From positions 3,076 to 67,075 of the forward strand of contig JAJSZW010000003.1 in NCBI GenBank assembly GCA_030262895.1: 64,000 nt of DNA, in the 5' to 3' direction. Each line of letters opens with the position of its first letter. Position 1 is the stretch's first letter. The DNA is from Deltaproteobacteria bacterium. GTDB lineage: Bacteria; Desulfobacterota; Desulfobacteria; Desulfobacterales; ETH-SRB1. Made by a program: the position numbers and the translations under genes. Below, piece by piece: positions 3,662 through 25,530 of the stretch. The notes under the pieces were generated by a model that did not search any database, had not been told where the DNA came from, and saw only the letters and a program-made list of their open reading frames with translations.

Positions 3662-3673
3662 AATGCATCCGAA

Positions 3674-3716: not shown

Positions 3717-3734
3717 TTCAACTTAGGTTATAAT

Positions 3735-3834
3735 GTGACCACTCACGTAGTCAGGTTTTTGCACCAAACATGGCTTCAAAATGCGCTTTTTCCTAACAGT
3801 CTTCAGCCTTCAGCCTATCCACCTGAGTAGTTAC
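3735..3834. repeat. MITE-like element, family B (termini gtaactactcaggt.. / ..cgtgagt.gtcac), short copy
   Basis: The reverse complement matches the first about 85 nt and the end of the copy at 63623-63795. It overlaps the 3' end of cobA/hemD. Confidence 0.85.
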
Positions 3835-5355: not shown

Positions 5356-6283
5356 TTTTTTCCGCTTTTATGTTTTCCAGTATTTTTTTGGCGCCCATAG
5401 AAATAAGGCTATCAGCAAGTTTAACACCAATACTTTCGGATTGCTCAACAGGGCCTGACAAGGTTTTTTTTAAAATGGTTTTTCCATCAATATCAGCAAC
5501 AAGCCCGCTCAGAGTAAATATATATTTTTCAATTGTACCATAGGCGGCTATAGGGACTTGACATCCTCCTTCTAGGCAGTTTGAAAAGGCCCGTTCACCA
5601 ATAACGGCAGACCTTGTTTTTTGATGATCCAAAGCAGTAACTATTGGTTCTATTTCTGCATCGTTTTCCCTGATTTCAATACATAAAGCGCCCTGACCAA
5701 CAGCCGGCAGCATTATGTTTTCATCAAGATATTCGGTTATTCTGCTTTCATAATTAAGGCGTTTAACGCCGGCAGCAGCCAGGATTGTTGCATCCATATT
5801 TTCTGTTTCGAGCTTCTTTAGGCGGGTATCAAGATTGCCCCTTAAAGGCAAGATAACGATATCCGGCCGTGCATGTCGTAGTTGGGCAGAGCGGCGAAGA
5901 CTGCTGGTGCCGATTCTGCTGCCGCTTACGAGTTCAGAGAAGAGAAGACCATTTTTAGAAATAAGAACATCATTGGGCGTTTCGCGCTCGGGCACCGCAC
6001 CTATACACAGGCCCGGGGGTATTTCTGCGGGCATGTCTTTCATGCTGTGAACAGCAAGATCTATTCGCCCATCTAAAAGAGCCTCCTCGATTTCCTTTAC
6101 AAAAAGTCCCTTGCCGCCGACCATGGCAAGGGGTACGTCCAGAATTTTGTCTCCTTTAGTCTTTATAATAATGAGATCGACGGAAAGAGAAGGGTTTATA
6201 GATATTAGAGCGGATTTTACCCAGTTTGCCTGCCAGAGAGCCAGCTTGCTCCCCCTTGTTCCTATTTTAATGCTTTTTTTCAT
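5336..6283 (-). CDS. hemC: porphobilinogen deaminase (hydroxymethylbilane synthase)
   Basis: IKIGTRGSKLALWQA signature. I chose the start at the ATG forming a TAATG overlap with the upstream stop; the listed ORF extends 15 codons further. Confidence 0.9.
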   Translation of the reverse strand: MKKSIKIGTRGSKLALWQANWVKSALISINPSLSVDLIIIKTKGDKILDVPLAMVGGKGLFVKEIEEALLDGRIDLAVHSMKDMPAEIPPGLCIGAVPERETPNDVLISKNGLLFSELVSGSRIGTSSLRRSAQLRHARPDIVILPLRGNLDTRLKKLETENMDATILAAAGVKRLNYESRITEYLDENIMLPAVGQGALCIEIRENDAEIEPIVTALDHQKTRSAVIGERAFSNCLEGGCQVPIAAYGTIEKYIFTLSGLVADIDGKTILKKTLSGPVEQSESIGVKLADSLISMGAKKILENIKAEKNENYER

Positions 6284-6519
6284 TAAAGACCACAGCTCGA
6301 ACAACTTGTTGCCGAGCATCCGCTGCATGATGAATCTGAAGCAGATGTTTTGACAGTTTCACCGCCGCCTCCCTTGCTGACAAAACCGCATTTAGATATC
6401 AGTCTGCCAACCTTCTTGCTTTTGCATAATGGGCAAACCGGATCTTCTTTTCCAAAGACCAGGTACTCAAAATCCTTACTACAATTATTACAATGATATT
6501 CATAAATAGGCATACTCAT
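6283..6519 (-). CDS. FmdB-family zinc-ribbon protein (CxxC_CxxC_SSSS)
   Basis: MPIYEYHCNNCSKDFE..CPLCKS followed by a Ser/Cys-rich tail. Confidence 0.85.
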   Translation of the reverse strand: MSMPIYEYHCNNCSKDFEYLVFGKEDPVCPLCKSKKVGRLISKCGFVSKGGGGETVKTSASDSSCSGCSATSCSSCGL

Positions 6520-6548
6520 TTCTCCTAACTATCAAATCGAAAATTTTT

Positions 6549-6623
6549 AGCCATTAGCCATTAGCCATTAGCTTAAAAAATCAAACAGATAACACATTCA
6601 GCTAAGAGCTGACAGCTAATGGC
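6549..6623. repeat. Heptamer microsatellite (agccatt x3) with an inverted partner
   Basis: agccattagccattagccattagc at 6549-6572 and gctaatggc at 6615-6623. cagctaagagct in between resembles family C elements. Confidence 0.7.
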
Positions 6624-6667
6624 AAATAGCTTTTTCACAAAACACAATAAGCATCAATGTTTTAAAA

Positions 6668-7618
6668 TCAATCAGATATTTTTTCAATCACTCCTGCTGC
6701 GATCAGCGGCAGCATTATTTCATGATGGCCTACAAGGTTAAAACCCTGCCCCCCTTTTGCTGTCGGCCGGTTAACAACGTTGGTCATTGGGCGGTAATGT
6801 CTTATGAAATCCATATTAACGCTGGTAAAATTTTCCAGATTATGGCCAAGATTTCGTACCAGGGTTACTGCCTTTAAAAAAACTTCCGGAAGCATTACGG
6901 CGGATCCGATATTCATGTAAACTCCGCCTTCAATTGTGGCGATTATCGATGCAAATGTCCTGAAATCTCTATGGGTTGCTCCACCAGTCTCTTTAGGATC
7001 AAATTCGGGGTGCATATGAATAATGTCTGTTCCAACAGCAACATGGACGGTTACCGGGATGCCCAGGCGATAGCCGGCGGCAAGTATACTTTTATCCATA
7101 AGGGGCAGTTTGTTTTCATTGATGGATTGTCCCACAGCATCCCCGAGTCCTGTTGATTTTTTCCCTGCTTTTTTTATGGCCTCACATAAAAAGGAGCATG
7201 TCTCATGAGCCATTCCGAAACTTCCGTTTCCTATTGATGCAGCAACATCTTCAGATGTTTTTCCTGTCATGGCGACTTCCAAATCATGAATTATGCATGC
7301 TCCGTTCATCGCAACTGCTGTAACAACCCCGCGTTCCATAAGGTCAATAATAATAGGGTTCAAACCTGTTTTTATGACATGAGCGCCCATGGCGAATACT
7401 ATTGTTTTTTTCTTCTTAAAAGCGCTTACAATAGAAGAAATGACTGCATTTATATGCCTGCCGGCAAGAATGTTCGGCAGATTATCAAGGAAATCATTAA
7501 TACAAGATCCCTTTACCCAGGTTTTTGCAAAATCATCTGAGGATACTTTGCTTTTTCGTTCCGACAGAGGATAGGTTCGCAATTGGCTTAAGTCTATAGG
7601 TTTAAATGATCGTGGCAT
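6668..7618 (-). CDS. deoxyhypusine-synthase-like family protein (tentative)
   Basis: GAHVIKTGLNPIIIDLMERGVVTAVAMNGA..IHD resembles the DHS-family NAD-binding core. The family assignment is from memory of the motif only. Confidence 0.55.
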   Translation of the reverse strand: MPRSFKPIDLSQLRTYPLSERKSKVSSDDFAKTWVKGSCINDFLDNLPNILAGRHINAVISSIVSAFKKKKTIVFAMGAHVIKTGLNPIIIDLMERGVVTAVAMNGACIIHDLEVAMTGKTSEDVAASIGNGSFGMAHETCSFLCEAIKKAGKKSTGLGDAVGQSINENKLPLMDKSILAAGYRLGIPVTVHVAVGTDIIHMHPEFDPKETGGATHRDFRTFASIIATIEGGVYMNIGSAVMLPEVFLKAVTLVRNLGHNLENFTSVNMDFIRHYRPMTNVVNRPTAKGGQGFNLVGHHEIMLPLIAAGVIEKISD

Positions 7619-7636
7619 TTTTGCTTTGATGTCCTT

Positions 7637-8206
7637 TTATTGAGGGAACAGAATTCTTTCAACAAGTTCGCAAAGAATATGCCCCAATGTTATATGTGCT
7701 TCTTGAATTCTTGCAGTTGCGCCGGATTCAACTGAAAATACCAGATCAGCACATTCAGCCAGTTTCCCGCCGTTACCCATTATTCCTATTGTTAAAAGTT
7801 CCATGTTTTTTGCTGTATTTATTGCTTTAATTACATTTTTCGAATTGCCGCTGGTACTGATACCGATAGCAATATCGTCTTTTTTGCCCAGAGCCATTAC
7901 CTGCTTGGCAAATATTTCATCAAAATGATAGTCATTGCCGATACTTGTTATTATTGATGTGTCGGTTGTCAGGGCAATGGCAGGGAGAGGAGGTCGTTCA
8001 ATTTGAAAACGGTTTACAAATTCCGCCGCAATATGCTGGGCATCTGCCGCGCTTCCACCATTGCCGAAAATAAGAATTTTGTGGCCGGAGGCAATGTTCA
8101 TGGCTATCATGTCAGCGCCTTTTATAATCAGATCTATATTGTTTTTTATAAACCTGTCTTTAACTTCTATGCTTTGTTGCAGTATGTTCAGGATAGTATC
8201 TTTCAT
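7637..8206 (-). CDS. gmhA: SIS-domain sedoheptulose-7-phosphate isomerase (GmhA/DiaA family)
   Basis: ILIFGNGGSAADAQHIAAEFVNRF and SGNSKNV motifs. ATGA overlap with the upstream gene. Confidence 0.8.
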   Translation of the reverse strand: MKDTILNILQQSIEVKDRFIKNNIDLIIKGADMIAMNIASGHKILIFGNGGSAADAQHIAAEFVNRFQIERPPLPAIALTTDTSIITSIGNDYHFDEIFAKQVMALGKKDDIAIGISTSGNSKNVIKAINTAKNMELLTIGIMGNGGKLAECADLVFSVESGATARIQEAHITLGHILCELVERILFPQ

Positions 8207-11145: not shown

Positions 11146-11415
11146 TCACACCCCTAATTCTCCTGACCACAGCGCTTCCAGAAAGAATTGCCATGGCAAA
11201 ATTTCAATTAAGGAATCAGGTTTTCTTGGCTGATTTTCCAAAGAAACAATAACAGCCCGCTTAACCGCATGCTCTTCCAGAAGCGCCTTCAGACCTCTGG
11301 CATGTGTGCTATGCACTCTGTGTGACCCCTTGACTTCAACTGCCACATTCATATCGTCGCGGAACGAATTAGCCGGCAAATTCAAGTCTAATATCCTTTT
11401 CTTAATTTGTTTCAT
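11146..11415 (-). pseudogene. C-terminal fragment of an AAA/DUF4143-type ATPase
   Basis: The 89-aa ORF (..VAVEVKGSHRV..GLKALLEE..AVIVSLE) has the layout of the C-terminal DUF4143 region of the full-length gene at 24253-25530. No ATPase domain lies upstream. Confidence 0.55.
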
Positions 11416-11815: not shown

Positions 11816-14800
11816 ATGAAAAAATCCATAGATATATTTAATATTCATCAAAAGATAATGGATGATTACAAGCATTTTGTCGGCAGTTTTATAAATATTA
11901 AAGATGAAAAAATTAAAGAAGTAGTAGAAAACAAAATAAATCAGGGAAAGTTCTGGCCCGAGCCTTTAATACAGTTTAACCCTTCATTTGAGCAGGGTGA
12001 ATCAGCTCAGTCCCTTTGTGATAAAGGGATACTGCATCCCGATCTATCTAAAATTTTTAAGAATTACGATCTATTCAAACATCAGGTTGAAGCAATAAAA
12101 AAAGGATGTAAAGGTTTGGATTTTGTCGTTACTTCAGGTACTGGCTCCGGGAAATCATTAACATTTTTAGGCACAATTTTTGATTATCTTTTAAAGAATA
12201 AAACCGGCGCCGGCATCAAAGCGGTTATTGTTTATCCTATGAACGCTTTGATTAATTCCCAGTTTAAGGGGATAAAGGAATATAGAGACAGCTATAAAAA
12301 TACAACCGGCAAGGATTTCCCAATAACTTATGCTAAATACACCGGCCAGGAAGATGAAGAAGAAAGAAAGAGGATAAAGAGCAAGCTCCCGGATATTATC
12401 CTTACAAATTATATGATGCTGGAGTTGATTCTGACAAGATCAAAAGAAGATATTATCCGTAATTCAATATTTGATAACCTTAAATACCTTGTATTTGATG
12501 AACTTCATACTTACAGAGGCAGGCAGGGATCAGATGTGGCTATTTTAATTAGAAGAATCAGAGCGCAGGCGACTCATAGCATATCATGCATAGGCACTTC
12601 AGCCACCATGGTTTCTGAAGGCACAATTTCCGAACAGAAAAGAAAAGTGGCTGAGGTCGCATCTAAGATATTCGGCGCTATGTTTTCAGAAGAGCAAATA
12701 ATCAATGAATATCTGGTCAGATGTTTTGATTATGATGGTAACTTGCCGGATAAAGAAGCCTTAACAAAAGCCTTGCAATCTGAAATCGATCCTGATGACC
12801 CGGAAGAAAAATTAAAAACGTTTCCTTTAAGCGCCTGGCTTGAAAACAAAATCGCTCTTGATGAAAACAGCTGTATGCTCGTAAGGCATAAGCCCATGCA
12901 GTTTTCCCTGATTGCATATAAACTTGCTGAAGATACCGGCCTTGATAAAAGCCTGTGCGAATCAAAGTTGAAAAAGTTTTTAAGGTGGATATCAAATGTA
13001 AATGAAAATCTTGGAGATAAAAGATATACTTACCTGCCATATAAAGTTCATCAACTAATATCCCAAACCGGCGCTGTATATGTATCCCTGGATAATGATG
13101 ATGACCGAATTATAAGCCTTGACCCTGCAAGCCACAAGGGCCATGGTGACAACAGAATTCCATTATTCCCGGTAGTATTTTCCAGAATTTCAGGCCATGA
13201 ATTTATCTGCGTAAATAAAGATCTTAATAATGAAGTTTTAAGGCCGCGTGAGTTCAGAGAAATCTTGAGTGATGAAGAAGACCTCACATCAGGATATATT
13301 ATTGCTGGTTCAGATGTGTGGAACCCTGAAACAGATCTCGAACAACTTCCTGACGCCTGGGTTCAAGTTGATAAGTCAGGCAATTACAAACCTCAAAAAA
13401 AATATAAGGACAGGTTACCCCAAAAAATTTATTTTGATCAAAAAGGAAATTTTTCAAGCAGAAATGAATATAAATATGAAGGCTGGTTTATGCCGGCAAA
13501 GCTTTTGTTTGATCCCACATGTGGCGCCCAGTACGATCCAAAAACAAATGAAGCAACAAAACTGACAAGGCTGGGCAGTGAAGGCCGCAGCACATCAACA
13601 ACAGTGCTTTCATATTCTATCTTAACTCAACTGGCAGAACACGGCTTTCATCCAAAAGATCAGAAGTTATTGAGCTTTACAGATAATCGACAGGATGCTG
13701 CCCTGCAGGCAGGACATTTCAATGATTCATTAAAAGTTATCCAGCTTAGATCAGCAATTTGTCAGGCCCTTGCCAAATACAAAGAGCGGGACTTTACAAA
13801 TCTTGATCAGGCAATATTCGAGGCCCTTGATTTGTCCCCGGAAGAGTATGCTGCCAACCCCTCAACAAAATTTCCCGGAGCAATAAAGGACAATGAAAAT
13901 GCATTAAAAAACTATTTAATGTACCGTTCTCTTTATGATTTAAGACGCGGCTGGCGGGTTGTGCTTCCCAACCTGGAACAATGCGGTTTGCTGAATATTG
14001 ACTATAAACATCTTAAAGAAAACTGTGCATCTGATGAAAGCTGGCAGGGATTGCCATTTCTTGAAGACCTTTCACATGAAGACCGGACTGAAATTATTTA
14101 TCAGATTCTGGATTTTTTCAGAAAATCTTATGCGCTATCCAGTGAGGAATATTTAACTCAAAATGCAATTAATGAAAAGAACAAGGAAATCAAGGAAAGG
14201 TTAAGACTTCCCTGGAAATTTGATGAAAACGAAAAAATAGCAGACCCGGTCAGAATGGTATATGAACCATTTAAAAGAGGCACCAGGTTTTTCTGGAAAA
14301 GCCTTGGGCCTGCCAGCGCTTTGGGTAAATATCTTAAATATGAAGCTAAACTCAAGGGGATCGTTTTCAATAATGAAACTTACAGTGATTTCATAAAATC
14401 ATTACTGAAACTGTTAACAGAAGCGGGCTGGCTGAAGGAAACAACTGGAAAAAACAGGGACAATCAGGACACATGTCTATACCAGCTCAGGATTGACCAG
14501 ATTATATGGAAAATTGGTGATGGTAAATCAGTAAAGCCGGATTATGTTAAAATCAGATCCTATAAAGGTTATGAACAGAAGCCGAATACTTATTATCAAA
14601 AATTATACAAAACCGATTTTAAAAGCAGGAAAAAGCTGATTGGAAAAGAGCATACCGGCCAGATTAGCAATGAAGACCGGATAGAACGTGAAGATAAATT
14701 TAAAACAGGCGAATACAGCGCCCTGTTCTGCTCACCTACCATGGAACTTGGAATTGATATTGCGGATTTAAATTTTGTCCACATGAGAAACGTTCCGCCC

Positions 14801-16906
14801 AACCCTGCGAACTACGCACAAAGAAGCGGCAGGGCAGGAAGGAGCGGGCAGGCAGCGCTGATATTTACCAGTTGTTCTGTGTATTCCCCGCATGACAGCC
14901 ATTACTTTAAACATGCGATTGATCTTGTATCAGGCATTGTGGCCCCACCCAGAATTGACCTTACCAATCAGGAATTACTGGAGACACACCTTAATGCAAT
15001 ATATCTGGCAAAAGTAAAACTCAGTGAGCTGAATCAGCATCTGATCAATCTTCTCAATAAAGATGACAAAGAAAACCTCCCGCTTTTATCTGAAATTAAG
15101 GAGCAACTAAATTTAGGCCGGCAGTCAAAAATAGAAATAAAGTTTATTTTTGAAAATGTGGTCAATGACCTTAAAACCATGAAAACGGCATCATTGTCAT
15201 GGTTGAATGATGAATGGATAGACAGAAAAATCGACTTAGCGCCTAAAAGTTTTGACAGGTCTTTGGATAGATGGAGAAGATTATATATTGCCGTCCAAAA
15301 ACAGCTCACTGAAGCTAACAGGATCATAGAAAGCGGCCTGTATCTGAGTACATCCGATGAAATGAAGGAGGCTAAAAGAAATGTTTCCCAGGCAATCAGG
15401 CAGAGAGATCTTCTTGAAAACAGAGTATCTTACAGCAGCCTGTCGGAATTCTATCCTTACCGGTATCTTGCAGCAGAGGGTTTCTTACCTGGTTATAATT
15501 TTACACGCCTGCCCATGAGAACATATATCCCCATAGGAGATTCAGGCGAATATATATCAAGGCCGAGGTTTATTGCCTTAAGAGAGTTCGGCCCGCGAAA
15601 TATTATTTATCATAAAGGCGCTAAGTACCAGATAGAGCAGTTGCTTTCACAGGAATCGGAATCCCATTTAAAACCCGCCAAAGTAAGTACAAAATCGGGT
15701 TATATCCTGATGGGTGATGAATACAGTTGCGAAATATGCCCCTTCAGCAAGGTTTCGCTCAGCGGAGGTGAAAACAAGGAAATATTTACAGACCTTCTTG
15801 AAATGGCTGAAACCCGCACAAGGGAAATGGAAAGGATTTCCTGTGAAGAGGAAGAGAGGCTCTCCCGTGGATTTGACATCAAAACATACTTTTCCATGCC
15901 TGCAGGCGGCCTGGATAATATCCGCACGGCTAAAATTAAAAATGACGATGAAGAATTTTTATATGTGAGGTTTCTCCCATGTGCCCTGCTGGTCCAGATC
16001 AACAATAAATGGCGGAGGTCAAAGGAGAAAGGCTTTTTAATGGGACTAAATACAGGCGCATGGAAAAAAGAAACCTTTGATCATAATGCAGAATCAGCCG
16101 AGCCGGTCAGGAGGATAAAACTTGTAACATATGATACAGCAGATGCCCTGTATATAGAACCGATTAAATCGCTGGGCCTCTCTCCGGCCGGCGTTATTAC
16201 TTTGCAGTATGCACTAAAGCGCGCAGTTGAAAATGTTTTTCAGGTTGAACCAAGAGAAGTCGGCGCAGAACTTATGGGAGATGAATCGCAGCCGAATATT
16301 TTTTTGTATGAGGCTTCAGAAGGAAGCCTTGGTGTATTGTCACAGTTTATCGAAGACAAGGATGTATTTAAAAATGTCATTTCAGAAACAATCAATATTT
16401 GCCGCTTTGATGATAAAACTTACAATGATGAAGCCTCTTATGATGACCTTTTGAACTATTATAACCAGCGATATCATGATAAGATTAATCGATTTGAAAT
16501 TAAGGATGCTCTTGAAAAGCTCAAAGTATGTGATGTTGAAATCATCACCAGCAAAATGTTCGGAGATTACGAAGAGCAGTATCAGCAGCTCTTAAAAGGT
16601 ATTGATCCAAATTCTTCAACTGAACTCAGATTTTTGAATTATCTTCATGATAAAGGGCTAAAACTGCCGGATGCCACACAAAGAACCATTGAAGGTATCT
16701 ACTGCAAACCGGATTTTTTCTATGAACCTGATGTATGGGTTTTCTGCGATGGAACCCCGCATGATGAGCCTGAAGTTAAGAAAAAAGACAGAAACCAGCG
16801 TGCTGCGATCCTGAACAGAGGGGATCAGGTTTTTGTATATTATTATCAGGACAAATTGGAAGAGATAATCGGCAAAAGGACGGATATTTTTAAAAAGGTA
16901 AAGTAA
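11816..16906 (+). CDS. 1696-aa DExH-box helicase with DUF1998-like segment and C-terminal Vsr/DUF559-like domain (DISARM DrmA+DrmB-like fusion)
   Basis: Helicase motifs TSGTGSGKS, DELHTYRG and QRSGRAGRSGQ. DUF1998-like segment YLAAEGFLPGYNFTRLP..CEICPF. C-terminus CKPDFFYEPDVWVFCDGTPHD. Confidence 0.85.
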   Translation: MKKSIDIFNIHQKIMDDYKHFVGSFINIKDEKIKEVVENKINQGKFWPEPLIQFNPSFEQGESAQSLCDKGILHPDLSKIFKNYDLFKHQVEAIKKGCKGLDFVVTSGTGSGKSLTFLGTIFDYLLKNKTGAGIKAVIVYPMNALINSQFKGIKEYRDSYKNTTGKDFPITYAKYTGQEDEEERKRIKSKLPDIILTNYMMLELILTRSKEDIIRNSIFDNLKYLVFDELHTYRGRQGSDVAILIRRIRAQATHSISCIGTSATMVSEGTISEQKRKVAEVASKIFGAMFSEEQIINEYLVRCFDYDGNLPDKEALTKALQSEIDPDDPEEKLKTFPLSAWLENKIALDENSCMLVRHKPMQFSLIAYKLAEDTGLDKSLCESKLKKFLRWISNVNENLGDKRYTYLPYKVHQLISQTGAVYVSLDNDDDRIISLDPASHKGHGDNRIPLFPVVFSRISGHEFICVNKDLNNEVLRPREFREILSDEEDLTSGYIIAGSDVWNPETDLEQLPDAWVQVDKSGNYKPQKKYKDRLPQKIYFDQKGNFSSRNEYKYEGWFMPAKLLFDPTCGAQYDPKTNEATKLTRLGSEGRSTSTTVLSYSILTQLAEHGFHPKDQKLLSFTDNRQDAALQAGHFNDSLKVIQLRSAICQALAKYKERDFTNLDQAIFEALDLSPEEYAANPSTKFPGAIKDNENALKNYLMYRSLYDLRRGWRVVLPNLEQCGLLNIDYKHLKENCASDESWQGLPFLEDLSHEDRTEIIYQILDFFRKSYALSSEEYLTQNAINEKNKEIKERLRLPWKFDENEKIADPVRMVYEPFKRGTRFFWKSLGPASALGKYLKYEAKLKGIVFNNETYSDFIKSLLKLLTEAGWLKETTGKNRDNQDTCLYQLRIDQIIWKIGDGKSVKPDYVKIRSYKGYEQKPNTYYQKLYKTDFKSRKKLIGKEHTGQISNEDRIEREDKFKTGEYSALFCSPTMELGIDIADLNFVHMRNVPPNPANYAQRSGRAGRSGQAALIFTSCSVYSPHDSHYFKHAIDLVSGIVAPPRIDLTNQELLETHLNAIYLAKVKLSELNQHLINLLNKDDKENLPLLSEIKEQLNLGRQSKIEIKFIFENVVNDLKTMKTASLSWLNDEWIDRKIDLAPKSFDRSLDRWRRLYIAVQKQLTEANRIIESGLYLSTSDEMKEAKRNVSQAIRQRDLLENRVSYSSLSEFYPYRYLAAEGFLPGYNFTRLPMRTYIPIGDSGEYISRPRFIALREFGPRNIIYHKGAKYQIEQLLSQESESHLKPAKVSTKSGYILMGDEYSCEICPFSKVSLSGGENKEIFTDLLEMAETRTREMERISCEEEERLSRGFDIKTYFSMPAGGLDNIRTAKIKNDDEEFLYVRFLPCALLVQINNKWRRSKEKGFLMGLNTGAWKKETFDHNAESAEPVRRIKLVTYDTADALYIEPIKSLGLSPAGVITLQYALKRAVENVFQVEPREVGAELMGDESQPNIFLYEASEGSLGVLSQFIEDKDVFKNVISETINICRFDDKTYNDEASYDDLLNYYNQRYHDKINRFEIKDALEKLKVCDVEIITSKMFGDYEEQYQQLLKGIDPNSSTELRFLNYLHDKGLKLPDATQRTIEGIYCKPDFFYEPDVWVFCDGTPHDEPEVKKKDRNQRAAILNRGDQVFVYYYQDKLEEIIGKRTDIFKKVK

Positions 16907-16910
16907 ATCA

Positions 16911-19754
16911 ATGAAATTCAAGGCAGGTTCACTGGTTACAGCCAGAAACAGGGACTGGGTTGTCCTCCCTTCAAATGATGACAAACTGGTTTTGCTAAAA
17001 CCGCTTGGCGGATCTGAGGAAGAGATAACAGGTATTTATTTGCCCCTTGCTTTTGCCGATGACAGGATCGAATCCACAAACTTTCCACATCCTTCTGCAA
17101 AAGATCTGGGAGATATTGCTTCTGCCAGGCTGCTTTATAATGCTGTCAGGCTCTCCTTTAGAAACGGCGCAGGCCCTTTCAGGTCTCTGGCAAAGTTTTC
17201 GTTCAGGCCGCGGTCATACCAGATGGTTCCTCTTATCATGGCGCTAAAGCAGGAGGGTCCCATACGGTTGTTAATTGCTGATGATGTCGGCGTAGGCAAA
17301 ACAATCGAGGCTCTGATAATATTAAAGGAGCTTCTTGAACGAAGAGTGATCAAACGTTTTGCCATTATTGTCCTGCCCCATTTATGCGAACAGTGGCAGT
17401 CGGAACTTAAGGATAAATTCGGTATTGAGGCAGTTGTCATCAGGTCAAACACACAGGCAAGGCTGGACAGGGAGATCCCAGGTGACACCAGCGTATTTCA
17501 TCATTATCCATATCAGGTTATTTCAATTGATTATATTAAATCCGATCAGCGCAGGCAGGTTTTTATTCAGGAATGCCCGGAGTTTATTATTGTGGATGAA
17601 GCCCATACCTGCTCGGTTGCTTTAGGCGCAAGGGCCGCCCAACAGCAGAGATATCAACTCATCAGAGATATTGCAAAAAAGTCCGGACAGCACATGATGT
17701 ATCTTACCGCAACTCCTCACAGCGGCAAGGCAGAACAGTTCAGCTCTCTTCTCGGTTTAATAAAGCCTGAATATCAGTCTCTTGATCTTCCAGTCGCCAC
17801 TCAGAACCAGCGCAGGGATCTTGCAAAATATTATGTCCAGAGAAGGCGGGCTGATGTTGAAAAGTGGATGAATGAAGACACCCCTTTTCCCAGTCGGGAT
17901 GCCGGAGAATTTCAGTATGATCTGTCAAAAAAGTATTCAGCGTTTTATGATGATATCCTCGATTTTGCGCTTGGTCTGACAAGAGGCGATGATATTCACG
18001 AAGGCAGAAAACGTTTAAGATACTGGTCGGCTTTAGCTCTGCTCAGGGGTGTAATGTCCAGCCCCGCGGCCGGCGTTGAAATGATAAACAACAGAATAAA
18101 AAAGCAACCCGCTTGTGATGATGCTGACGATGTTGTTGACACAGATGCAAATCCGATCATGGACGATGATTACGACAGCGCAAAGGATTATGCACCGACC
18201 GGAATTATAAATAAAACAGACTGGACAGATACTGAAAATAAAAAGTTGAATAAACTTGCAAAACTGCTGGACGAGCTTCATGGCGTAGGGCACGATTTCA
18301 AGGCAGCCAGGGCGTTGGAAATTGTAGGCACGTGGCTGAAAAAGGGTTATAACCCCCTTGTGTTCTGCCGTTTTATAAGAACAGCCAATTACCTTGGAGA
18401 TATTCTTAGAAAAAATCTGAAAAAAGTCAATGTTCAGGTTGTTACAAGTGAAGATCCTGACGAGGTCAGGAAGGCAAGAATCGATGATATGGAATCATCA
18501 CCCAAAAAGGTTCTTGTCGCTACCGACTGCCTGAGCGAAGGAATAAACCTCCAGGATCAGTTTACAGCAGTACTGCATTATGACCTTCCATGGAACCCGA
18601 ACCGTTTGGAACAGCGTGAAGGTAGAATTGACCGTTACGGCCAGAGATCAGAAAAAGTCAAGGCATACCTTTTGTACGGCACAAACAACCCGATAGACGG
18701 AGTTGTGCTGAAAGTGCTTTTAAGAAAGGTGCGGGAGATCAGACGTTCTACCGGGATTTCCATACCATTTCCCGAAGACAGCAAATCTTTGATGGATTCA
18801 GTTCTTCAGGCCGTTATCTCAGATTCACAGGCCGCAGCCAGAAGGCGTGATGCAAAGCAGCTTACATTTGATTTCAGCAAAGTCGATGAAGTCAGAGAAA
18901 AGGAGCTTATTGCGACAAAGGCTATTGAAAAGGCGGCAGACCGTGAAAAAGCTTCAAGGACCATATTTGCCCAACATGCAATAAAAGCAAATGAAATCGA
19001 GCAGGATCTAAAGCAGGCAGATGAGGCCATTGGTAATCCTGAAGCTGTTGAATCTTTTGTCACTGAATCTCTGATGAACGTACTTGGTGTTCAGATAACA
19101 CAAGACAAAAAAGCCAATGGATATATACTCTATACCGCAAACATTCCGCCTGTTTTAAGAAGCGCACTTCCTCCGAAAAAACAGCTCAAGGTCAGCTTTT
19201 TCTCACCCACTCCTGAAGGATATATCTATCTTGGCAGAAATCATGTTTTTGTTGAGCAACTATGCCAGTACCTTATGGCAAATGCATTAAGCAGCGACAC
19301 TGATCACGATCCTGCCAGGTCAGCAGTTATAAAATGCAGGGACGTTAAGATAAAAACAACGCTTTTACTTTTCAGGGTCAGAAACGTTATCGAGGAAAAG
19401 AAAGGCGGAAACCAGTTTGTGGCTGAAGAAATGCTTTTATGGGGTTACAAGGGAAGCCCTTCGGATAATGCATTTTTGGTTAAAGATGAAATTAAAAAAC
19501 TGATGGCGTATGCTGTTCCATCTGCTAATATTACAAATCAGGCAAAGGCAAGTTTTCTTGAAAATGAACTGGAAAACATTTCCGAACTTCGAGATGAATT
19601 TAACAAAATTGCCCTGCAAAGAGCCGAGATCCTGATCGAAGCCCACGAGCGGTTCAGAAAAGTCATGGGCGGAAAGAGATTCAAGGTTGTCGAGCCGGTT
19701 CTTCCAATGGATTTAATGGGAGTATATATTTTATTGCCGGACAAAGGGAATTAA
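16911..19754 (+). CDS. SNF2-family helicase (DISARM DrmD-like)
   Basis: Motifs ADDVGVGKTIEA, VDEAH, LTATPHSGK and QREGRIDRYGQ. It starts 4 nt after the upstream stop. Confidence 0.9.
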   Translation: MKFKAGSLVTARNRDWVVLPSNDDKLVLLKPLGGSEEEITGIYLPLAFADDRIESTNFPHPSAKDLGDIASARLLYNAVRLSFRNGAGPFRSLAKFSFRPRSYQMVPLIMALKQEGPIRLLIADDVGVGKTIEALIILKELLERRVIKRFAIIVLPHLCEQWQSELKDKFGIEAVVIRSNTQARLDREIPGDTSVFHHYPYQVISIDYIKSDQRRQVFIQECPEFIIVDEAHTCSVALGARAAQQQRYQLIRDIAKKSGQHMMYLTATPHSGKAEQFSSLLGLIKPEYQSLDLPVATQNQRRDLAKYYVQRRRADVEKWMNEDTPFPSRDAGEFQYDLSKKYSAFYDDILDFALGLTRGDDIHEGRKRLRYWSALALLRGVMSSPAAGVEMINNRIKKQPACDDADDVVDTDANPIMDDDYDSAKDYAPTGIINKTDWTDTENKKLNKLAKLLDELHGVGHDFKAARALEIVGTWLKKGYNPLVFCRFIRTANYLGDILRKNLKKVNVQVVTSEDPDEVRKARIDDMESSPKKVLVATDCLSEGINLQDQFTAVLHYDLPWNPNRLEQREGRIDRYGQRSEKVKAYLLYGTNNPIDGVVLKVLLRKVREIRRSTGISIPFPEDSKSLMDSVLQAVISDSQAAARRRDAKQLTFDFSKVDEVREKELIATKAIEKAADREKASRTIFAQHAIKANEIEQDLKQADEAIGNPEAVESFVTESLMNVLGVQITQDKKANGYILYTANIPPVLRSALPPKKQLKVSFFSPTPEGYIYLGRNHVFVEQLCQYLMANALSSDTDHDPARSAVIKCRDVKIKTTLLLFRVRNVIEEKKGGNQFVAEEMLLWGYKGSPSDNAFLVKDEIKKLMAYAVPSANITNQAKASFLENELENISELRDEFNKIALQRAEILIEAHERFRKVMGGKRFKVVEPVLPMDLMGVYILLPDKGN

Positions 19755-19757
19755 AAA

Positions 19758-19786
19758 ATTGGAGGTCGCAATTTGCGACTTCCAAT
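19758..19786. promoter_or_regulatory. Near-perfect 29-bp palindrome between the SNF2 and methyltransferase genes, followed by tataat
   Basis: attggaggtcgcaa-t-ttgcgacttccaat, where the single arm difference would be a G-U pair in RNA. tataat lies at 19792-19797 and the ATG at 19808. Confidence 0.4.
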
Positions 19787-19807
19787 CAAGATATAATGAG
19801 CTAATGT

Positions 19808-22800
19808 ATGAAATACACCACCATACGCATAGAAGGCGCCATACTTTCTGCTGATATACTTGACAAGATTGAGCAGGGAGACATTGGCGGCCGGCTTGCC
19901 AGGGATTTCGGCTTTGACACAAAAATAAAGGTCAAGGATGAAATCGCAAGGGCATGGGCAGATGCCCAGGATTTGTGGCGTATATTCAAAAGGCAGAAAG
20001 AAAGAGTTGCTGAGCAGGAATACGGAACCACAGAAACAAGAAAATACTGGATTATCCCTTTGCTTGGATTATTCGGATATGATGCCCAGCTCTCAAAAGC
20101 GGAAATTGTTCATGGAAAATCGTATGCAGTAACCCACCGCATAGCCAATCTTGACAGATTCCCGATTCATATAGTGGGGTTTAATGACAGCCTTGATAAA
20201 AAAAGAACAGACAGTGGACCCCGCATGTCACCACATGCCCTTTTGCAGGAATATATAAACCTTACCGAACACCTTTATGCAATTATTACAAACGGCATTC
20301 ATTTAAGGCTTTTGCGAAACAGCAGCAGGCTTATCAGGCTGTCATTTATCGAGTTTGATCTCGAAACCATGATGGAGGAAGAACATTATGCAGACTTTGC
20401 CATAATGTTTCGCCTTCTTCATTCAAGCCGCATGCCCGCAAAAATGGATCTGGGAGCAGAGAGCCTGATAGAAAAGTATCATCAGGATGCGCTGGATTCA
20501 GGGTCAAGAATTCGGGAAGGCTTAAGCAATGCGGTAGAAATCTCTATACGTTCTCTTGCAAACGGTTTTCTGCAACATACAGACAATGAAGAGCTTCGGG
20601 AGCAGCTTGATAATGAGGAAATATTAGCATCTAAGTTTTATCAGTATCAACTGCGTCTTATATACAGAATTTTGTTTCTCATGGTCATTGAAGAAAGAAA
20701 CCTTATTTTTCCTGATAATGTGGATAAGACCAAAAGAAAAATCTATTATCAATATTACAGTGTCAACCATCTTAGAAAGCTTTGTGAAAAACTGTATCTT
20801 GCCGATCAGCGGTTTAACGACCTCTGGATTGCATTAAAAAATACATTTCATCTTTTTGAGAGTGAAATAAAAGGAAAGCATCTGGGCCTAAGCCCTCTTG
20901 CAGGCGACCTGTTCGGATATAATGCCATCGACATATTAAACAAGTGCAATCTTGATAACAAGATACTTCTGGAATGCTTAAGAAGCTTAAGCGTATTTAT
21001 CAATAAAAAAACCGGCCAGAAAATGCGGGTGAATTATGCTTCGCTGAATGTAGAAGAATTCGGCTCGGTTTATGAGGGCATGCTCGAATATGATCCAATG
21101 ATTACAAAACAGGCCGGAGTTTATCAGTTTGATTTTGTAAAAGGCTCTGCTCGATCATCGTCAGGCTCTCATTACACGCCCGATGAGCTTGTCCAGCCGC
21201 TTATCAAGCATTCTCTGGATTATATTATTGAAGACAGGCTGAAATCATCCGACAAAAAATCAGAAAAGGAAAAAGCATTATTATCCATCAAGGTTTGTGA
21301 TGTTGCCTGCGGCAGCGGGCATATATTGCTTAATGCAGCAAGAAGGATTGGGGCCGAAGTTGCCAAGCTCAGGACAGGCGAGGACCAGCCGTCTCCTGCG
21401 CCTTTGCGCCAGGCAATCAGGGATGTGATCAAATCCTGTATTTATGGCGTGGATAAAAATCCTCTGGCTGTTGAATTATGCAAGGTTGCCCTGTGGCTTG
21501 AGGCGCACAATCCCGGAGAACCCTTGAATTTTCTTGATCATCATATCAAGTGGGGTGATGCGATTGTTGGACTGGCGCATAAGGAAGAGCTGGGAAACGG
21601 TATTGCTGATGAGGCGTTCAAGAAGATACCTGGTGATGACAAGGATATAAGGGCTGAGCTTGCGAAGAGAAATAAGACAGAAAGAAAAAGCGCTGAAAAA
21701 AGGAAAATTTTCTATGAACACTCTGAGTTCGGTTCTATAGATAGATCATTTACCGACATATCCAAAGTTTTCGAATCTTTTAATCGGCTTCCTGAAAACT
21801 CAATTAAAGAGATTGAACATAAACGCATAGAATATAAAAGATTGAGTTCAGGGGATAACTGGTGGCGACTAAAGACCTTAGCCGATATTCAGGTGGCACA
21901 GTTTTTTATTCCAAAAACAGAGGATAACGCAAAAAAGATAATTACAGATGACACGTATCGGGCACATCTGTCAGGTAGAAAACCGCTGGGAGGATGGGTC
22001 GCAGTAGCAAAAGCTATGGGTGTCGCAACGGAAAAGAAATTTTTTCATTGGTTCCTGGAATTTCCAGAAGTATTCAATCCCTCTCCTGCGGGAGATGGCC
22101 GGGGTGAGGGCAAAGGCGGGTTTGATTGTATTTTGGGGAATCCGCCGTTTTTGGGTGGAAAAAGAATTAGTACAAATTATGGTGATTACTATTTAAATTA
22201 TTTAAAAAAGAATTACGAACCAATTAAGGGTGCTACCTGTGATCTGGTAGCATATTTTTTTAGAAGAAATTTCGACTTATTAATGGAAAATAAATTTGTT
22301 TCATTAATTTCTACAAATACTATTGCACAAGGGGAAACAAGGAAAGGAAGTTTAGATAAGATAACTGAAACAGGTAGCATTAATTATGCTGTTAAAAGCA
22401 CAAAATGGCCAGGACTTGCAGCTGTCGAAGTTGCTTTGTTGAGCATTTATAAGGGTGACTGGAAAGGTCAATTTATTTTAAATGGAAAAACTGTGAATAG
22501 AATCTCACCTTTTCTTGATGATTCTGAAAAGGCACAAAATCCTGTACCTTTAAAACAGAATGAAAAGAAATCTTTTAAAGGTAGTTATGTTCTTGGCCTT
22601 GGATTTACATTAACAGAAATTGAAGCAAAAGCTCTAATAAATGCTGATTCAAAGTATAAAGATATTCTTTTCCCTTACTTGATTGGAGAAAATGTAAACA
22701 GGTCACCTATTCAAGCGCCCAGTAGATGGATTATAAATTTTTTCGACTGGCCTATGGAAAAATGTAAAACAGGATATCCAAATTGTTTTAATAAAATTGA

Positions 22801-23707
22801 ATCCTTAGTTAGGCCTGAAAGAATTATTTTAAAGGATAAAGGCTATAGGGAAAAATGGTGGTTATATGCAAGAAGAGGTGTAGAATTATATAATACAATT
22901 AGCTCTTTGAATAATGTATTTGCTTCTTGTACAGTTACAAAGCATTTAGCTTACATAAAAACTGAATCAAAAAAGGTTTTTGATATTGCAACAAATATTG
23001 TAGTTTTTGAAGAAATGAATTACTTTTCTTATCTTCAGTCAACTATTCATAGTTCTTGGGCCTGGAAGTATGGCTCGACAATGAAAAGTGATTTGAGATA
23101 TACACCAACAGGCTGTATTCAAACATTTCCATTCCCGCAAAACATTTCAGAATCACAAAAGAAAGATTTAGAACAAATAGGCGAAGCCTATCACGAACAC
23201 CGCTCTCAACTTATGCTTAAAATTCAGCTTGGTCTCACCAAAACCTACAATCAATTCCACAACCCTGATCTCAGGGGGTTTTCAAACGATGATATCGAAA
23301 CAATTTCAACCCTGAAAACCAAGGATTTCCAAAAACAATACGGCAAAGAAACCGTTAACCTATGGAAGCACTTAAACAAGACAGAAGGCGTCTGTGCATT
23401 CAACGAGGCGGTGCAGGATATCGCGCATCTGCACAAGCTTCACAAAACGATGGACGAAACCGTATTAAAAGCCTATGGCTGGGATGATATAGATCTATCT
23501 CATGATTTTTACGAAGTGGACTATCTGCCGGAAAACGACCGTGTACGATACACAATTTCACCTGATGCCAGAAAAGAAGTCCTAAAGCGTCTGCTAAAAC
23601 TAAACCACGAAATCCACGAACAGGAAGTGAAAGCAGGCCTGCACATAAAAAGAAAAAGCAAAAAGAAACAGAAAGCCGATGCACCAGGACAGATGAAGCT
23701 GTTTTAA
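19808..23707 (+). CDS. 1299-aa gamma-class N6-adenine DNA methyltransferase (Eco57I-like, DISARM DrmMI-like)
   Basis: Motif I VACGSGHILLNAARRIG precedes motif IV ILGNPPFLGG. It has long N- and C-terminal extensions. Confidence 0.9.
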   Translation: MKYTTIRIEGAILSADILDKIEQGDIGGRLARDFGFDTKIKVKDEIARAWADAQDLWRIFKRQKERVAEQEYGTTETRKYWIIPLLGLFGYDAQLSKAEIVHGKSYAVTHRIANLDRFPIHIVGFNDSLDKKRTDSGPRMSPHALLQEYINLTEHLYAIITNGIHLRLLRNSSRLIRLSFIEFDLETMMEEEHYADFAIMFRLLHSSRMPAKMDLGAESLIEKYHQDALDSGSRIREGLSNAVEISIRSLANGFLQHTDNEELREQLDNEEILASKFYQYQLRLIYRILFLMVIEERNLIFPDNVDKTKRKIYYQYYSVNHLRKLCEKLYLADQRFNDLWIALKNTFHLFESEIKGKHLGLSPLAGDLFGYNAIDILNKCNLDNKILLECLRSLSVFINKKTGQKMRVNYASLNVEEFGSVYEGMLEYDPMITKQAGVYQFDFVKGSARSSSGSHYTPDELVQPLIKHSLDYIIEDRLKSSDKKSEKEKALLSIKVCDVACGSGHILLNAARRIGAEVAKLRTGEDQPSPAPLRQAIRDVIKSCIYGVDKNPLAVELCKVALWLEAHNPGEPLNFLDHHIKWGDAIVGLAHKEELGNGIADEAFKKIPGDDKDIRAELAKRNKTERKSAEKRKIFYEHSEFGSIDRSFTDISKVFESFNRLPENSIKEIEHKRIEYKRLSSGDNWWRLKTLADIQVAQFFIPKTEDNAKKIITDDTYRAHLSGRKPLGGWVAVAKAMGVATEKKFFHWFLEFPEVFNPSPAGDGRGEGKGGFDCILGNPPFLGGKRISTNYGDYYLNYLKKNYEPIKGATCDLVAYFFRRNFDLLMENKFVSLISTNTIAQGETRKGSLDKITETGSINYAVKSTKWPGLAAVEVALLSIYKGDWKGQFILNGKTVNRISPFLDDSEKAQNPVPLKQNEKKSFKGSYVLGLGFTLTEIEAKALINADSKYKDILFPYLIGENVNRSPIQAPSRWIINFFDWPMEKCKTGYPNCFNKIESLVRPERIILKDKGYREKWWLYARRGVELYNTISSLNNVFASCTVTKHLAYIKTESKKVFDIATNIVVFEEMNYFSYLQSTIHSSWAWKYGSTMKSDLRYTPTGCIQTFPFPQNISESQKKDLEQIGEAYHEHRSQLMLKIQLGLTKTYNQFHNPDLRGFSNDDIETISTLKTKDFQKQYGKETVNLWKHLNKTEGVCAFNEAVQDIAHLHKLHKTMDETVLKAYGWDDIDLSHDFYEVDYLPENDRVRYTISPDARKEVLKRLLKLNHEIHEQEVKAGLHIKRKSKKKQKADAPGQMKLF

Positions 23708-24252: not shown

Positions 24253-25530
24253 TCAATTCCAGATGTTGGCTTGTAGAAAAAATTCAAACAGAGGCAGGGG
24301 AATATAAAATCGGCCATCTTCTTCTTTAAAATCCTGTTTGGTCACAAGTATCATTTTTTGAGTATTGTATTTTTTTGTAAAGTTACGCATTGCAACCGGC
24401 AACCCTGATACTTTATTCTGGAATTTTACTTCAATGACATCCCTGGTTTGGCCGTAATCAACAATAAAATCAATTTCCGCTTTGCTGATGGTTCTATAGA
24501 AAAATAAATTATCTTCTGTTACATAGTGTCGCAAGGCTGCAAAGGCAAGATTTTCTGCTTCCTGCCCGCTGATATCATTGTATGTTGCAGGAAAGCGATT
24601 CAGTATAAAATTGTGCAATCCGCTATCATTAATAAAAATCTTTTTCATCTTGGACACTTCTTTTCTCGTATTTACAAAAAAAGGCGTTAAAAAATGGCAC
24701 ACATATGTTCCCTGCAGGATATCCAGGTATTTATTCAACGTGTTAATTGCAATGCCCAGTGTATTGGCCAGAGACTGCTTGTTTAGAAGATTGGCTGTTT
24801 CTGAACATAGAACCTTTATCAGGCTGTTGAATGCAGCTACATTTTCAACCCTGAGAAATGCAATGATATCTTTTTGGATATAGGTTGAAAATAATTCCCG
24901 GATAAGTGTTTTTTTAAGATCATAATCCTCAGTGGTTACAATTTCAGGATATCCGCCAAACTGTGCAAACCGGGCGAACAGAATTTCAAGTTTTGTTTTA
25001 TGCACCTCGTAAAGTATTTTCCATTTATCATAGCTGTAAGCTGTTTCTGCAAAAGCCTTTTGAATACCCGGTTCTCTGTACCTTACAACCTCTGTAAAAG
25101 ATAAGCGTCCTATTGGAAATTCTATTTTGCGGCCTGTTAAAAATTCACTGTTTTTTGTAATCTCAAGGGATGAAGAACCGGAGACAATGAACTGCATTTT
25201 ATGATGGTACTTATCATGCAGAACCTTGATAAATCTTCCGGCATCATTAATATATTGAAACTCATCGATAAAAACGTACACTTTGGCGACTGAAAAATCT
25301 ATTTCGCTTTCAAGCCGGGCCATGAAGTGCTGTGGGGTTTTAAATATGGAATTATCAAAATCTTCGTCCGCGGAAATATAAAAGGTGGTCTTGCCTTGCC
25401 TGGTAAGATATGCCTGAATCTCATCCATGATAGTGGTTTTACCTACCTGCCTGGCGCCTTTAAGAATTAGAACTTTTGCGCTATCCAGACTCTTTATTAA
25501 TGTAAAAAAGATATCTCTTGTTATCTGCAT
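24253..25530 (-). CDS. AAA-family ATPase with C-terminal DUF4143 domain
   Basis: Walker A GARQVGKTT, Walker B VFIDEFQ, and a C-terminal ..AEIDFIVDYG..VIEVKFQNKV.. block. Confidence 0.85.
   Translation of the reverse strand: MQITRDIFFTLIKSLDSAKVLILKGARQVGKTTIMDEIQAYLTRQGKTTFYISADEDFDNSIFKTPQHFMARLESEIDFSVAKVYVFIDEFQYINDAGRFIKVLHDKYHHKMQFIVSGSSSLEITKNSEFLTGRKIEFPIGRLSFTEVVRYREPGIQKAFAETAYSYDKWKILYEVHKTKLEILFARFAQFGGYPEIVTTEDYDLKKTLIRELFSTYIQKDIIAFLRVENVAAFNSLIKVLCSETANLLNKQSLANTLGIAINTLNKYLDILQGTYVCHFLTPFFVNTRKEVSKMKKIFINDSGLHNFILNRFPATYNDISGQEAENLAFAALRHYVTEDNLFFYRTISKAEIDFIVDYGQTRDVIEVKFQNKVSGLPVAMRNFTKKYNTQKMILVTKQDFKEEDGRFYIPLPLFEFFLQANIWN

Follow-up and report, generated by a model that had tools for sequence, protein, structure and literature searches.

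The 64,000-nucleotide (nt) stretch of contig JAJSZW010000003.1 analyzed here (Deltaproteobacteria bacterium, assembly GCA_030262895.1), which we call the window, carries three large co-directional genes on its forward strand. Gene 1 spans positions 11816-16906 and codes for a protein of 1696 amino acids (aa), gene 2 spans 16911-19754 (947 aa), and gene 3 spans 19808-23707 (1299 aa). Genes 1 and 2 lie 4 nt apart, and genes 2 and 3 are separated by 53 nt. This layout, taken from a list of open reading frames (ORFs), agrees exactly with the one described in the original prediction, which was made from the letters of the DNA and interpreted the triad as a relative of the class 1 DISARM system with a fused DrmA/DrmB-type helicase and no phospholipase D (PLD) gene. 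Each of the motifs quoted there can also be located at a defined residue of the three proteins. Our comparisons point instead, with a probability of about 0.88, to a complete and intact three-gene operon of ARMADA Type I (disARM-related Antiviral Defence Array), a predicted antiviral system that already has a name.

The gene 1 protein includes the motifs TSGTGSGKS (residue 106), DELHTYRG (228), QRSGRAGRSGQ (1002), YLAAEGFLPGYNFTRLP (1217) and CEICPF (1305). Its RecA1/DEAD domain (residues 88-266, positions 12077-12613) matches the Pfam DEAD family with 90 bits and carries the Walker A sequence GSGKS and the DELH box. An AlphaFold2 model of residues 1-1100, which has a predicted local distance difference test score (pLDDT) of 83, has RecA1 followed by an insert encoded by positions 12752-13495, which consists of a helical domain (residues 313-397) and a beta-rich domain (409-560). 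These are followed by the first elements of RecA2, which include LLSFTDNRQDAA and can be aligned to the Druantia helicase DruE, then by an insert of about 280 residues, and finally by the rest of RecA2. The insertion within RecA2 (residues 657-935, positions 13784-14620) is modeled as helices plus a winged-helix-like unit, wherein helices at 835-846 and 853-869 precede a beta hairpin at 873-892. The two halves of RecA2 that flank this insertion align to DruE over gene 1 residues 573-657 and 944-1066. The Helicase_C part of RecA2 (residues 936-1011, positions 14621-14848; Pfam 56.7 bits) contains the motif VI sequence QRSGRAGRSGQ and aligns with residues 1077-1199 of the DruE structure 9TU7. 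Across 111 representatives of the gene 1 family, the helicase motif positions are 95-100% conserved.

The MZB/DUF1998 core of gene 1 is located at residues 1463-1523 (positions 16202-16384), where the Pfam MZB score of 24.7 bits is borderline relative to the cutoff of 24.2. The original prediction had placed the DUF1998-like segment at residues 1217-1310, whereas the Pfam match lies further downstream. Judged by its position upstream of MZB, we interpret the 1217-1310 segment as the OB-fold/insert region of that module.

Profile searches do not support the proposal that this chain is a fusion of DrmA and DrmB. In PADLOC, seven DruE models lead the matches to gene 1 with 256 to 163 bits, the best of these being DruE3, whereas two DrmA models score 43 and 34 bits over a stretch of about 82 residues in the generic Helicase_C region. 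DrmB models do not match the C-terminal 596 aa of gene 1, where DruE1 is matched weakly, and neither DrmA nor DrmB is matched by gene 1 in NCBIfam. Gene 1 is therefore placed outside the DrmA and DrmB families by these searches, which is the outcome that the original prediction had named as one that would overturn it, although the protein stays within the wider YprA/DUF1998 superfamily. When the sequences of the Protein Data Bank (PDB) are searched, the best match is Escherichia coli DruE (9TU7, E=3e-44), together with 9WAE and MrfA, and no DrmA chain is found at E<=0.01. A Foldseek search with the whole model of residues 1-1100 matched only RecA/helicase cores, with MrfA first and with DrmA absent from the top 50 fold matches; the library used predates the DruE depositions. 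In addition, RecA1 begins near residue 60, and thus there is no space in gene 1 for the N-terminal EVE/jelly-roll region of class 1 DrmA. On these sequence comparisons, gene 1 is best classified as an ArmC-type DExH helicase-nuclease of the YprA family and not as a DrmA+DrmB fusion.

The nuclease in this classification is a predicted Vsr-type domain of the PD-(D/E)xK superfamily at the C-terminus of gene 1 (residues 1575-1696, positions 16538-16903), as judged from its motif and its AlphaFold2 fold. The last ~120 residues are highly conserved and carry a PDF...FCDG..HD motif. Close homologs (sets of 117 and 30) all have E1603, P1632-D1633-F1634, F1643-C1644-D1645-G1646 and H1649, and more than 90% of them have D1650; across the wider helicase family D1633, D1645 and H1649 are 85-95% conserved. 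A model built on 30 homologs (pLDDT 89, predicted TM score 0.82) has as its best Foldseek match the I-Bth0305I homing endonuclease (3r3p; probability 0.97, TM scores 0.53/0.64), whose catalytic domain we take to have a Vsr-like fold. The next matches are also PD-(D/E)xK nucleases, namely the R.BspD6I small subunit, VRR-NUC, TnsA and the DdmD nuclease. One of the 30 family members has a match to DUF559 at E=0.01. The modeled fold and the conserved motif suggest that the C-terminus is likely a Vsr-type nuclease whose catalytic set is intact. The absence of a PLD gene was correctly anticipated, as a six-frame scan of positions 9000-30000 reveals no uninterrupted HxKxxxxD, and there is no PLD profile match among the window ORFs scanned against Pfam or the flanking ORFs scanned against Pfam and PADLOC. 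The nuclease itself, however, is probably not missing and appears to be fused to the helicase.

The protein encoded by gene 2 carries ADDVGVGKT (residue 123), VDEAH (228) and QREGRIDRYGQ (568), and its Pfam matches to SNF2-rel_dom and Helicase_C bear out the SNF2 assignment made earlier. Its best PDB relative is RapA (E=1e-18). In PADLOC it is matched by a DpdE model (PDLC02853) over its full length with 572 bits, and by DrmD with 277 bits, whereas the corresponding NCBIfam scores fall below their cutoffs (DISARM_DrmD 300 bits with an equivalog cutoff of 610; DpdE 186 bits with a cutoff of 500). These matches characterize gene 2 as a predicted ArmA-type helicase that resembles SNF2, RapA and BrxHII proteins.

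Gene 3 codes for a predicted methyltransferase with VACGSGHILL at residue 499 and GNPPFLGG at 777 (NPPF at 778). Pfam matches to Eco57I, MmeI_Mtase, MmeI_TRD and N6_Mtase define a methyltransferase core at residues 443-874 and a target-recognition domain at about 933-1111. The order of motif I, NPPF and then the recognition domain agrees with the gamma-class label of the original prediction. The best PDB match is MmeI, the PADLOC DrmMI model scores 760 bits, and PglX is matched weakly (NCBIfam 52 bits, cutoff 500). From these features, gene 3 appears to be an ArmB-type gamma-class N6-adenine DNA methyltransferase of the PglX/DrmMI-like kind. The N-terminus conserves H110, H121, Q147, Y149, NG and RLLR, and we considered whether gene 3 might carry its own nuclease in the manner of MmeI. 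We rejected this candidate: the N-terminal signature resembles a restriction-endonuclease fold, but it has no D..ExK triad.

ARMADA was defined in a September 2025 preprint that surveyed ~52,000 YprA-family helicases (Bell et al. 2025, bioRxiv 10.1101/2025.09.15.676423; PMC12458937). According to that study, Type I loci consist of a YprA homolog, then a BrxHII-like helicase and then a PglX-like methylase, with the order reversed in cyanobacteria. ARMADA shares with class 1 DISARM the BrxHII/RapA-like helicase and the PglX-like methyltransferase, and its nuclease is a Vsr-type domain on the helicase C-terminus and not a PLD gene (PMC12458937). The window agrees with Type I in gene content, gene order, gene sizes, the predicted C-terminal Vsr-type nuclease and the lack of an ArmD gene (RelE-GajB), which was not found in the window and whose absence fits the Type I order of YprA, SNF2 and methyltransferase.

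Direct comparisons with published members support this assignment. Two proteins given as "ARMADA Type I helicase" in Table S1 of Bell et al. align with gene 1 over its full length, MBF0224892.1 (P0050) with 62% identity and 100% coverage and NQV36814.1 (P0084) with 57% identity. A Rhodococcus sp. PD04 plasmid listed in the same study carries a helicase of 1715 aa, an SNF2 protein of 953 aa and a methyltransferase of 1375 aa in the same order as in the window. The corresponding identities are 34% for gene 1 (932 bits, full length, colinear), 38% for gene 2 (613 bits, full length) and 31% for gene 3 (396 bits, first ~810 residues). Overall, gene 1 aligns with Type I helicases over its full length at 932-1697 bits and with DruE at 158 bits over 263 aa. 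Gene 2 is 38-56% identical over its full length to the SNF2 genes of Type I triads, and gene 3 is 31-47% identical to Type I methyltransferases, with a divergent half that includes the target-recognition domain. Genes 1, 2 and 3 each rank four reference systems in the same order, and therefore the triad appears, on these alignments, to have evolved as a unit.

The experimentally studied Type II of E. coli is a more distant relation. Its ArmA, ArmB and ArmC proteins (an SNF2 protein, a methyltransferase and a YprA helicase-nuclease that carries a Vsr domain, respectively) are homologous to those of the triad, and genes 1, 2 and 3 align partially to the plasmid copy of ArmC, ArmA and ArmB used as our reference with 29%, 28% and 25% identity (211, 172 and 144 bits). 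Unlike the window, Type II has the order ArmA-ArmB-ArmC and a fourth essential gene, ArmD, which codes for a RelE-GajB fusion. Its ArmC protein also differs from gene 1 in its length of 2113 aa, its extra EEP and Vsr domains and its 9 CxxC motifs.

The order of genes 1, 2 and 3 was found in loci L001, L003, L005, L010-L015, L017 and L019 of our comparison set. The first three of these are from close relatives, and the triad is also found beside homologs of 55-59% identity in Thermodesulfovibrionales and other metagenome-assembled genomes, where the neighbors are radical-SAM genes, metabolic genes, or a prophage and a Gabija-like gene pair. It is present on a Paraburkholderia plasmid as well, and in reversed order on a plasmid of the cyanobacterium Planktothrix. 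Flanking genes were never common to the triad-bearing loci that were compared. Because the triad alone recurs in these unrelated contexts, it appears to be self-contained. Homologs of gene 1 number at least 7,975 at E<=1e-10 and form 1,004 clusters (50% identity) at E<=1e-30, with 107 plasmid records, and its close homologs are in Desulfobacterales-type metagenome-assembled genomes. All three genes are under purifying selection: relative to L001, the ratio of nonsynonymous to synonymous substitution rates (dN/dS) is 0.11 for gene 1 and 0.13 for gene 2, and in more distant comparisons genes 2 and 3 have values of 0.05-0.10, which gives an overall range of 0.05-0.13.

A further characteristic of gene 1 is the loss of most of its zinc-site cysteines. 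The protein has a single CxxC. CxxC counts are bimodally distributed over a set of 111 full-length cluster representatives, of which 57 carry 0-1 and 54 carry 4-7. In the CxxC-rich set, 12 cysteine positions are prominent and the majority show no variation, C1529 being conserved at 76%. Numbered as in gene 1, they are 456/459 and 566/569 in the beta-barrel domain, 1291/1294 and 1305/1308 in the OB insert, and 1529/1537/1541/1544 in DUF1998. Gene 1 reads SSDC SSCC CNSD at these positions. In the beta-barrel site, S456, S459 and D566 are replacements and C569 is retained, and C1529 alone is left of the DUF1998 cluster, where three of the four cysteines have been replaced (N1537, S1541 and D1544). 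The lineage of gene 1 has mostly Ser, Thr or Asp at the 12 positions, with C1529 present in most members and C1308 in about half.

A neighbor-joining tree separates zinc-less (n=59) and CxxC-rich (n=55) proteins into reciprocally monophyletic groups with no mixing, where the zinc-less clade is made up of gene 1, a plasmid-borne example and the 57 cluster representatives. In both groups, conservation at the helicase motif positions is 95-100%. Throughout the zinc-less clade, which covers many phyla and plasmids, the helicase and nuclease motifs are conserved. The Paraburkholderia plasmid helicase is zinc-less, whereas the Planktothrix and Rhodococcus copies carry the cysteines. Helicases suitable for comparison with gene 1 at these positions are encoded at 8662-14028 of L018 and 9004-14151 of L019. 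Type I helicases listed by Bell et al. occur in both groups, and therefore zinc loss represents variation within Type I and does not exclude gene 1 from membership.

We tentatively propose, at somewhat less than even odds, that gene 1 belongs to a large branch of ARMADA Type I that is monophyletic, extends across phyla, and has had its three zinc sites substituted and its catalytic motifs kept. If active, the enzymes of this branch would constitute a naturally zinc-independent subtype within a helicase family whose zinc cluster is considered essential for activity. Metal limitation may have driven this loss, or phage counter-defenses against zinc modules may have done so. Some ribosomal proteins exist in C+ and C- forms, which offer a possible analogy to the zinc-bearing and zinc-less helicases.

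Several points weigh against the assignment of the triad to ARMADA Type I. Experimental evidence exists for Type II alone (PMC12458937, PMC13463889), and our literature search found no phage-protection data for Type I. The helicase MBF0224892.1 is solo, without SNF2 and methyltransferase genes. At its locus (L016, helicase at 2742-7862), DUF5682 and VWA genes come next in their place, and the protein is a remnant or else a helicase that functions in some other setting. The order of the inserts in gene 1 corresponds to the positions of the BrxA-like, beta-barrel zinc-binding and MarR-like domains, which occur in that order and are shared derived features of the ARMADA/Druantia branch (PMC12458937), and this correspondence is one of position and secondary structure only. 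For the nuclease, the Foldseek E-values are weak (0.04-0.1). Searches with hidden Markov models gave nothing significant in Pfam for the C-terminal 137 aa, for other segments or for 30 family members, and a profile of the C-terminal domain found nothing significant among PDB sequences. The described family is rich in CxxC zinc modules, and loss of the DUF1998 cluster is reported only for Dpd (PMC12458937); gene 1 has neither those modules nor the four-cysteine cluster, which is reported to be necessary for the helicase activity of MrfA. We nevertheless accept the Vsr-type reading as likely because Bell et al. also give 3r3p for the Vsr-type domains of ArmC and DruE and needed HHpred to tie a Type I representative to Pfam Vsr (PMC12458937).

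A new variant of class 1 DISARM, with DrmA and DrmB fused, the order AB-D-MI and the PLD protein DrmC lost, is the interpretation that the PADLOC scores of gene 3 (DrmMI, 760 bits) and gene 2 (DrmD, 277 bits) would favor, together with the helicase and DUF1998 module on one chain and the missing PLD gene. ARMADA and DISARM are indeed acknowledged relatives with three components in common (PMC12458937). Genes 2 and 3 are clear homologs of DrmD and DrmMI, two components that occur in class 1 DISARM and in ARMADA alike. Class 1 DISARM (DrmMI, DrmD, DrmA, DrmB and DrmC; Ofir et al. 2018) likewise has an operon that encodes an SNF2 protein, a helicase of the DUF1998 family and a large adenine methyltransferase of the gamma class, and a restriction-modification-like logic would be expected in common with the triad. 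However, its helicase and DUF1998 module are separate genes from a different YprA branch, and its nuclease is the separate PLD protein DrmC, which is not in the window. DrmA also has a trigger loop and the N-terminal EVE/jelly-roll region for which gene 1 has no room, and neither is found in gene 1. The DrmA score of 43 bits is confined to the generic Helicase_C region and compares with 256 bits for DruE, DrmB is not matched, the NCBIfam score for DrmD (300 bits) is below its cutoff of 610 with no DrmA or DrmB match, and DrmA chains are absent from both the PDB sequence matches and the top 50 fold matches. The published tree groups the ARMADA YprA helicases with Druantia and not with DISARM (PMC12458937), and the predicted nuclease is fused and Vsr-type and is not a lost PLD protein. 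We consider a DISARM variant very unlikely on this evidence. What survives of the original prediction is a DISARM-related module with a helicase and DUF1998 on one chain, an SNF2 protein, a DrmMI-like methyltransferase and no PLD gene, whereas the claim of a new DISARM variant gives way to ARMADA Type I.

Still less probable is a Druantia-like system in which a DruE homolog acts with SNF2 and methyltransferase proteins in place of DruH or DruA-D. The best PADLOC matches of gene 1 are DruE models, and DruE of Druantia III (9TU7-9TUC; 10.64898/2026.05.13.724758) is its closest solved structure by sequence, with 9TU7 the best entry. Like gene 1, DruE is a single-chain YprA helicase with large inserts between and within its RecA domains, an MZB module and a fused C-terminal nuclease. 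However, DruE has a DruH partner and no methyltransferase or SNF2 protein, its nuclease consists of two PLD-like domains where gene 1 has a predicted Vsr-type C-terminus, and it aligns to gene 1 over the RecA cores only. No DruH, DruA-D or DruM/F/G genes are present in the window, and the scores of gene 1 against Type I helicases (932-1697 bits) far exceed that against DruE (158 bits). DruE is the nearest label available because PADLOC v2.0.0 (2023) has no ARMADA models. The founding DUF1998/MZB member, Bacillus subtilis MrfA/YprA (6ZNP/6ZNQ/6ZNS), is the top structural match of the gene 1 core, but it is a 750-aa DNA-repair helicase that retains its zinc cluster and lacks inserts, a fused nuclease and defense partners.

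The substitution of all three cysteine clusters and the solo helicase in another genome could be taken as signs that the locus is a decaying or non-functional defense remnant, for example through the lost helicase zinc sites. We judge this to be less likely again, since the three ORFs are intact, dN/dS is 0.05-0.13, and the helicase and nuclease motifs are conserved across a zinc-less clade (n=59) that includes many phyla and plasmids. The least likely explanation that we considered is a Dpd- or BREX-type restriction module parted from its modification or core genes. It draws on the 572-bit match of gene 2 to DpdE (PDLC02853), a weak DpdJ match for gene 1 and a weak PglX match for gene 3. The NCBIfam scores are far below their cutoffs (DpdE 186 of 500, DpdJ 56 of 800 and PglX 52 of 500 bits), and the 64 kb contain no dpdA/B/C, 7-deazaguanine synthesis (tgt/queC-type), BrxC, PglZ or BrxA genes. 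Furthermore, the triad recurs by itself in unrelated contexts.

If the triad is ARMADA Type I, a mechanism can be proposed by analogy with its better-studied relatives, from which we infer every biochemical step as well as any activity of Type I itself against phages. The protection given by ARMADA II is direct and involves no abortive infection, and it depends on the Walker motifs in ArmA and ArmC as well as on the NPPW motif in ArmB (PMC12458937). DruE (9TU7) is a 3'->5' helicase that binds single-stranded DNA, unwinds from single-stranded regions and acts on replication intermediates (10.64898/2026.05.13.724758), and DrmAB of DISARM recognizes unmodified DNA with single-stranded overhangs. 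The gene 3 protein might methylate adenine at a motif set by a variable target-recognition domain and so mark host DNA as self, and it would probably also take part in target discrimination, as do PglX in BREX and ArmB in ARMADA II. The half of gene 3 with the recognition domain diverges, as variable specificity would predict. The gene 2 protein would serve as a RapA/BrxHII-like SNF2 translocase. The gene 1 protein would probably load on single-stranded DNA or on forked phage replication intermediates and translocate 3'->5' like DruE. Together the two proteins might translocate on and unwind unmarked phage DNA, which the Vsr-type C-terminal domain of gene 1 would then cut. Defense by the triad would be expected to be direct (non-abortive), as in ARMADA II.

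The junctions of the operon vary among its relatives. A near-perfect hairpin with an 11-bp stem (GGAGGTCGCAA-T-TTGCGACTTCC, positions 19761-19783, read directly from the sequence) occupies a large part of the 53 nt that separate gene 2 from gene 3 and could be a regulatory or processing element; the spacers at this junction in relatives differ from that of the window. Junctions in relatives hold unrelated insertions at 5901-6405 and 9259-9836 of L001, at 15086-15328 and 18170-18651 of L005, and at 18014-19760 of L012. These include an assembly gap with palindromic repeat units on its flanks, a 243-nt palindrome resembling a miniature inverted-repeat transposable element (MITE), hexanucleotide microsatellites and two small unknown genes, and one insertion carries a small gene that, judged by eye, may code for an ORF6N-type DNA-binding protein. 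We considered whether the larger spacers in L001 and L005 might hold extra genes of the system and rejected this idea, as they contain the gap with palindromic repeats, the ORF6N-like gene, the MITE-like palindrome and microsatellites. Evidently, the operon junctions tolerate insertions.

Two further loci in the comparison set deserve mention. A contig of 5.6 kb (L002, 59-5639), assigned by binning to an uncultured Methanosarcinales archaeon, codes for a helicase 81% identical to gene 1 and for the start of an SNF2 protein 93% identical to gene 2. This copy reflects either mis-binning or recent transfer between syntrophic partners. The E. coli plasmid NZ_CP026578.2 (L020, 1-22237), a conjugative IncFIB plasmid, carries both a Druantia III DruE gene and ARMADA II ArmABCD. 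These adjoin an integrase gene, and the pair is known from E. coli chromosomal islands.

The triad is located in ordinary chromosomal DNA. Upstream neighbors on the minus strand are hemD/cobA-type, hemC, SIS, TPR and selA genes, downstream neighbors are DUF4143 AAA ATPase, GDP-mannose dehydratase, ion channel, DUF134 and DUF5320 genes, and the 41-64 kb portion of the window holds housekeeping genes. The DUF4143/AAA_14 ATPase gene (24253-25530, minus strand) lies tail-to-tail with gene 3 and matches the PADLOC candidate PDC-S01 with 233 bits. An 89-aa ORF at 11146-11415 (minus strand) has a weak likeness to the C-terminus of the same family (E=0.003) and no BLAST similarity to the intact copy, and may be a remnant of a DUF4143/AAA_14 gene. 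Neither is kept beside the triad in other genomes. We found no tRNAs or Rfam structured RNAs in the window. A search of the triad's borders for direct or inverted repeats or target-site duplications yielded nothing beyond short repeats at chance level, and promoter and terminator motif counts are not above those of shuffled sequence.

At 29967-33359 (plus strand) is a gene for a protein of 1130 aa in which a ~410-aa N-terminus of the TIGR00375 family (162 bits) is fused to a PcrA/UvrD-like helicase. This protein also has a weak PHP-associated Pfam match, its helicase part is GajB-like in PADLOC, and its gene is followed by a DUF2293 gene (33930-34418). As the sole UvrD-like gene of the window, 6 kb from the triad across unrelated genes, it was considered as a displaced ArmD and rejected, because its N-terminus is TIGR00375 and not RelE; its core is 26% identical to ArmD. 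Positions 34548-37058 (plus strand) code for a single chain of 836 aa in which a methyltransferase of the Eco57I type is joined to the HTH and catalytic domains of a BsuBI/PstI-family restriction endonuclease. The chain matches PADLOC PDLC03359 over its full length with 1191 bits and represents another restriction-modification element, unrelated to the triad and 11 kb away from it.

No new type of immune system is revealed here; the original prediction had arrived independently at what is ARMADA Type I. PADLOC v2.0.0 (2023), Pfam and NCBIfam release 20.0 (June 2026) have no label for this type, and a profile-based scan names the parts of the triad DruE, DpdE, DrmD and DrmMI, which makes it look like a novel hybrid. 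Current DefenseFinder models do recognize ARMADA II. The locus in the window provides an intact and compact chromosomal example of Type I, probably in a sulfate-reducing genome of the Desulfobacterales type. It departs from the published description of the family in its absent CxxC modules, in the loss of most DUF1998 cysteines and in the divergent recognition half of its methyltransferase. The cysteine loss was not found in the literature that we read, and we view the zinc-less clade as a modest new variant. The split between zinc-bearing and zinc-less helicases constitutes a natural experiment on whether YprA-family helicases need the zinc cluster of MZB and their accessory zinc modules in order to function.

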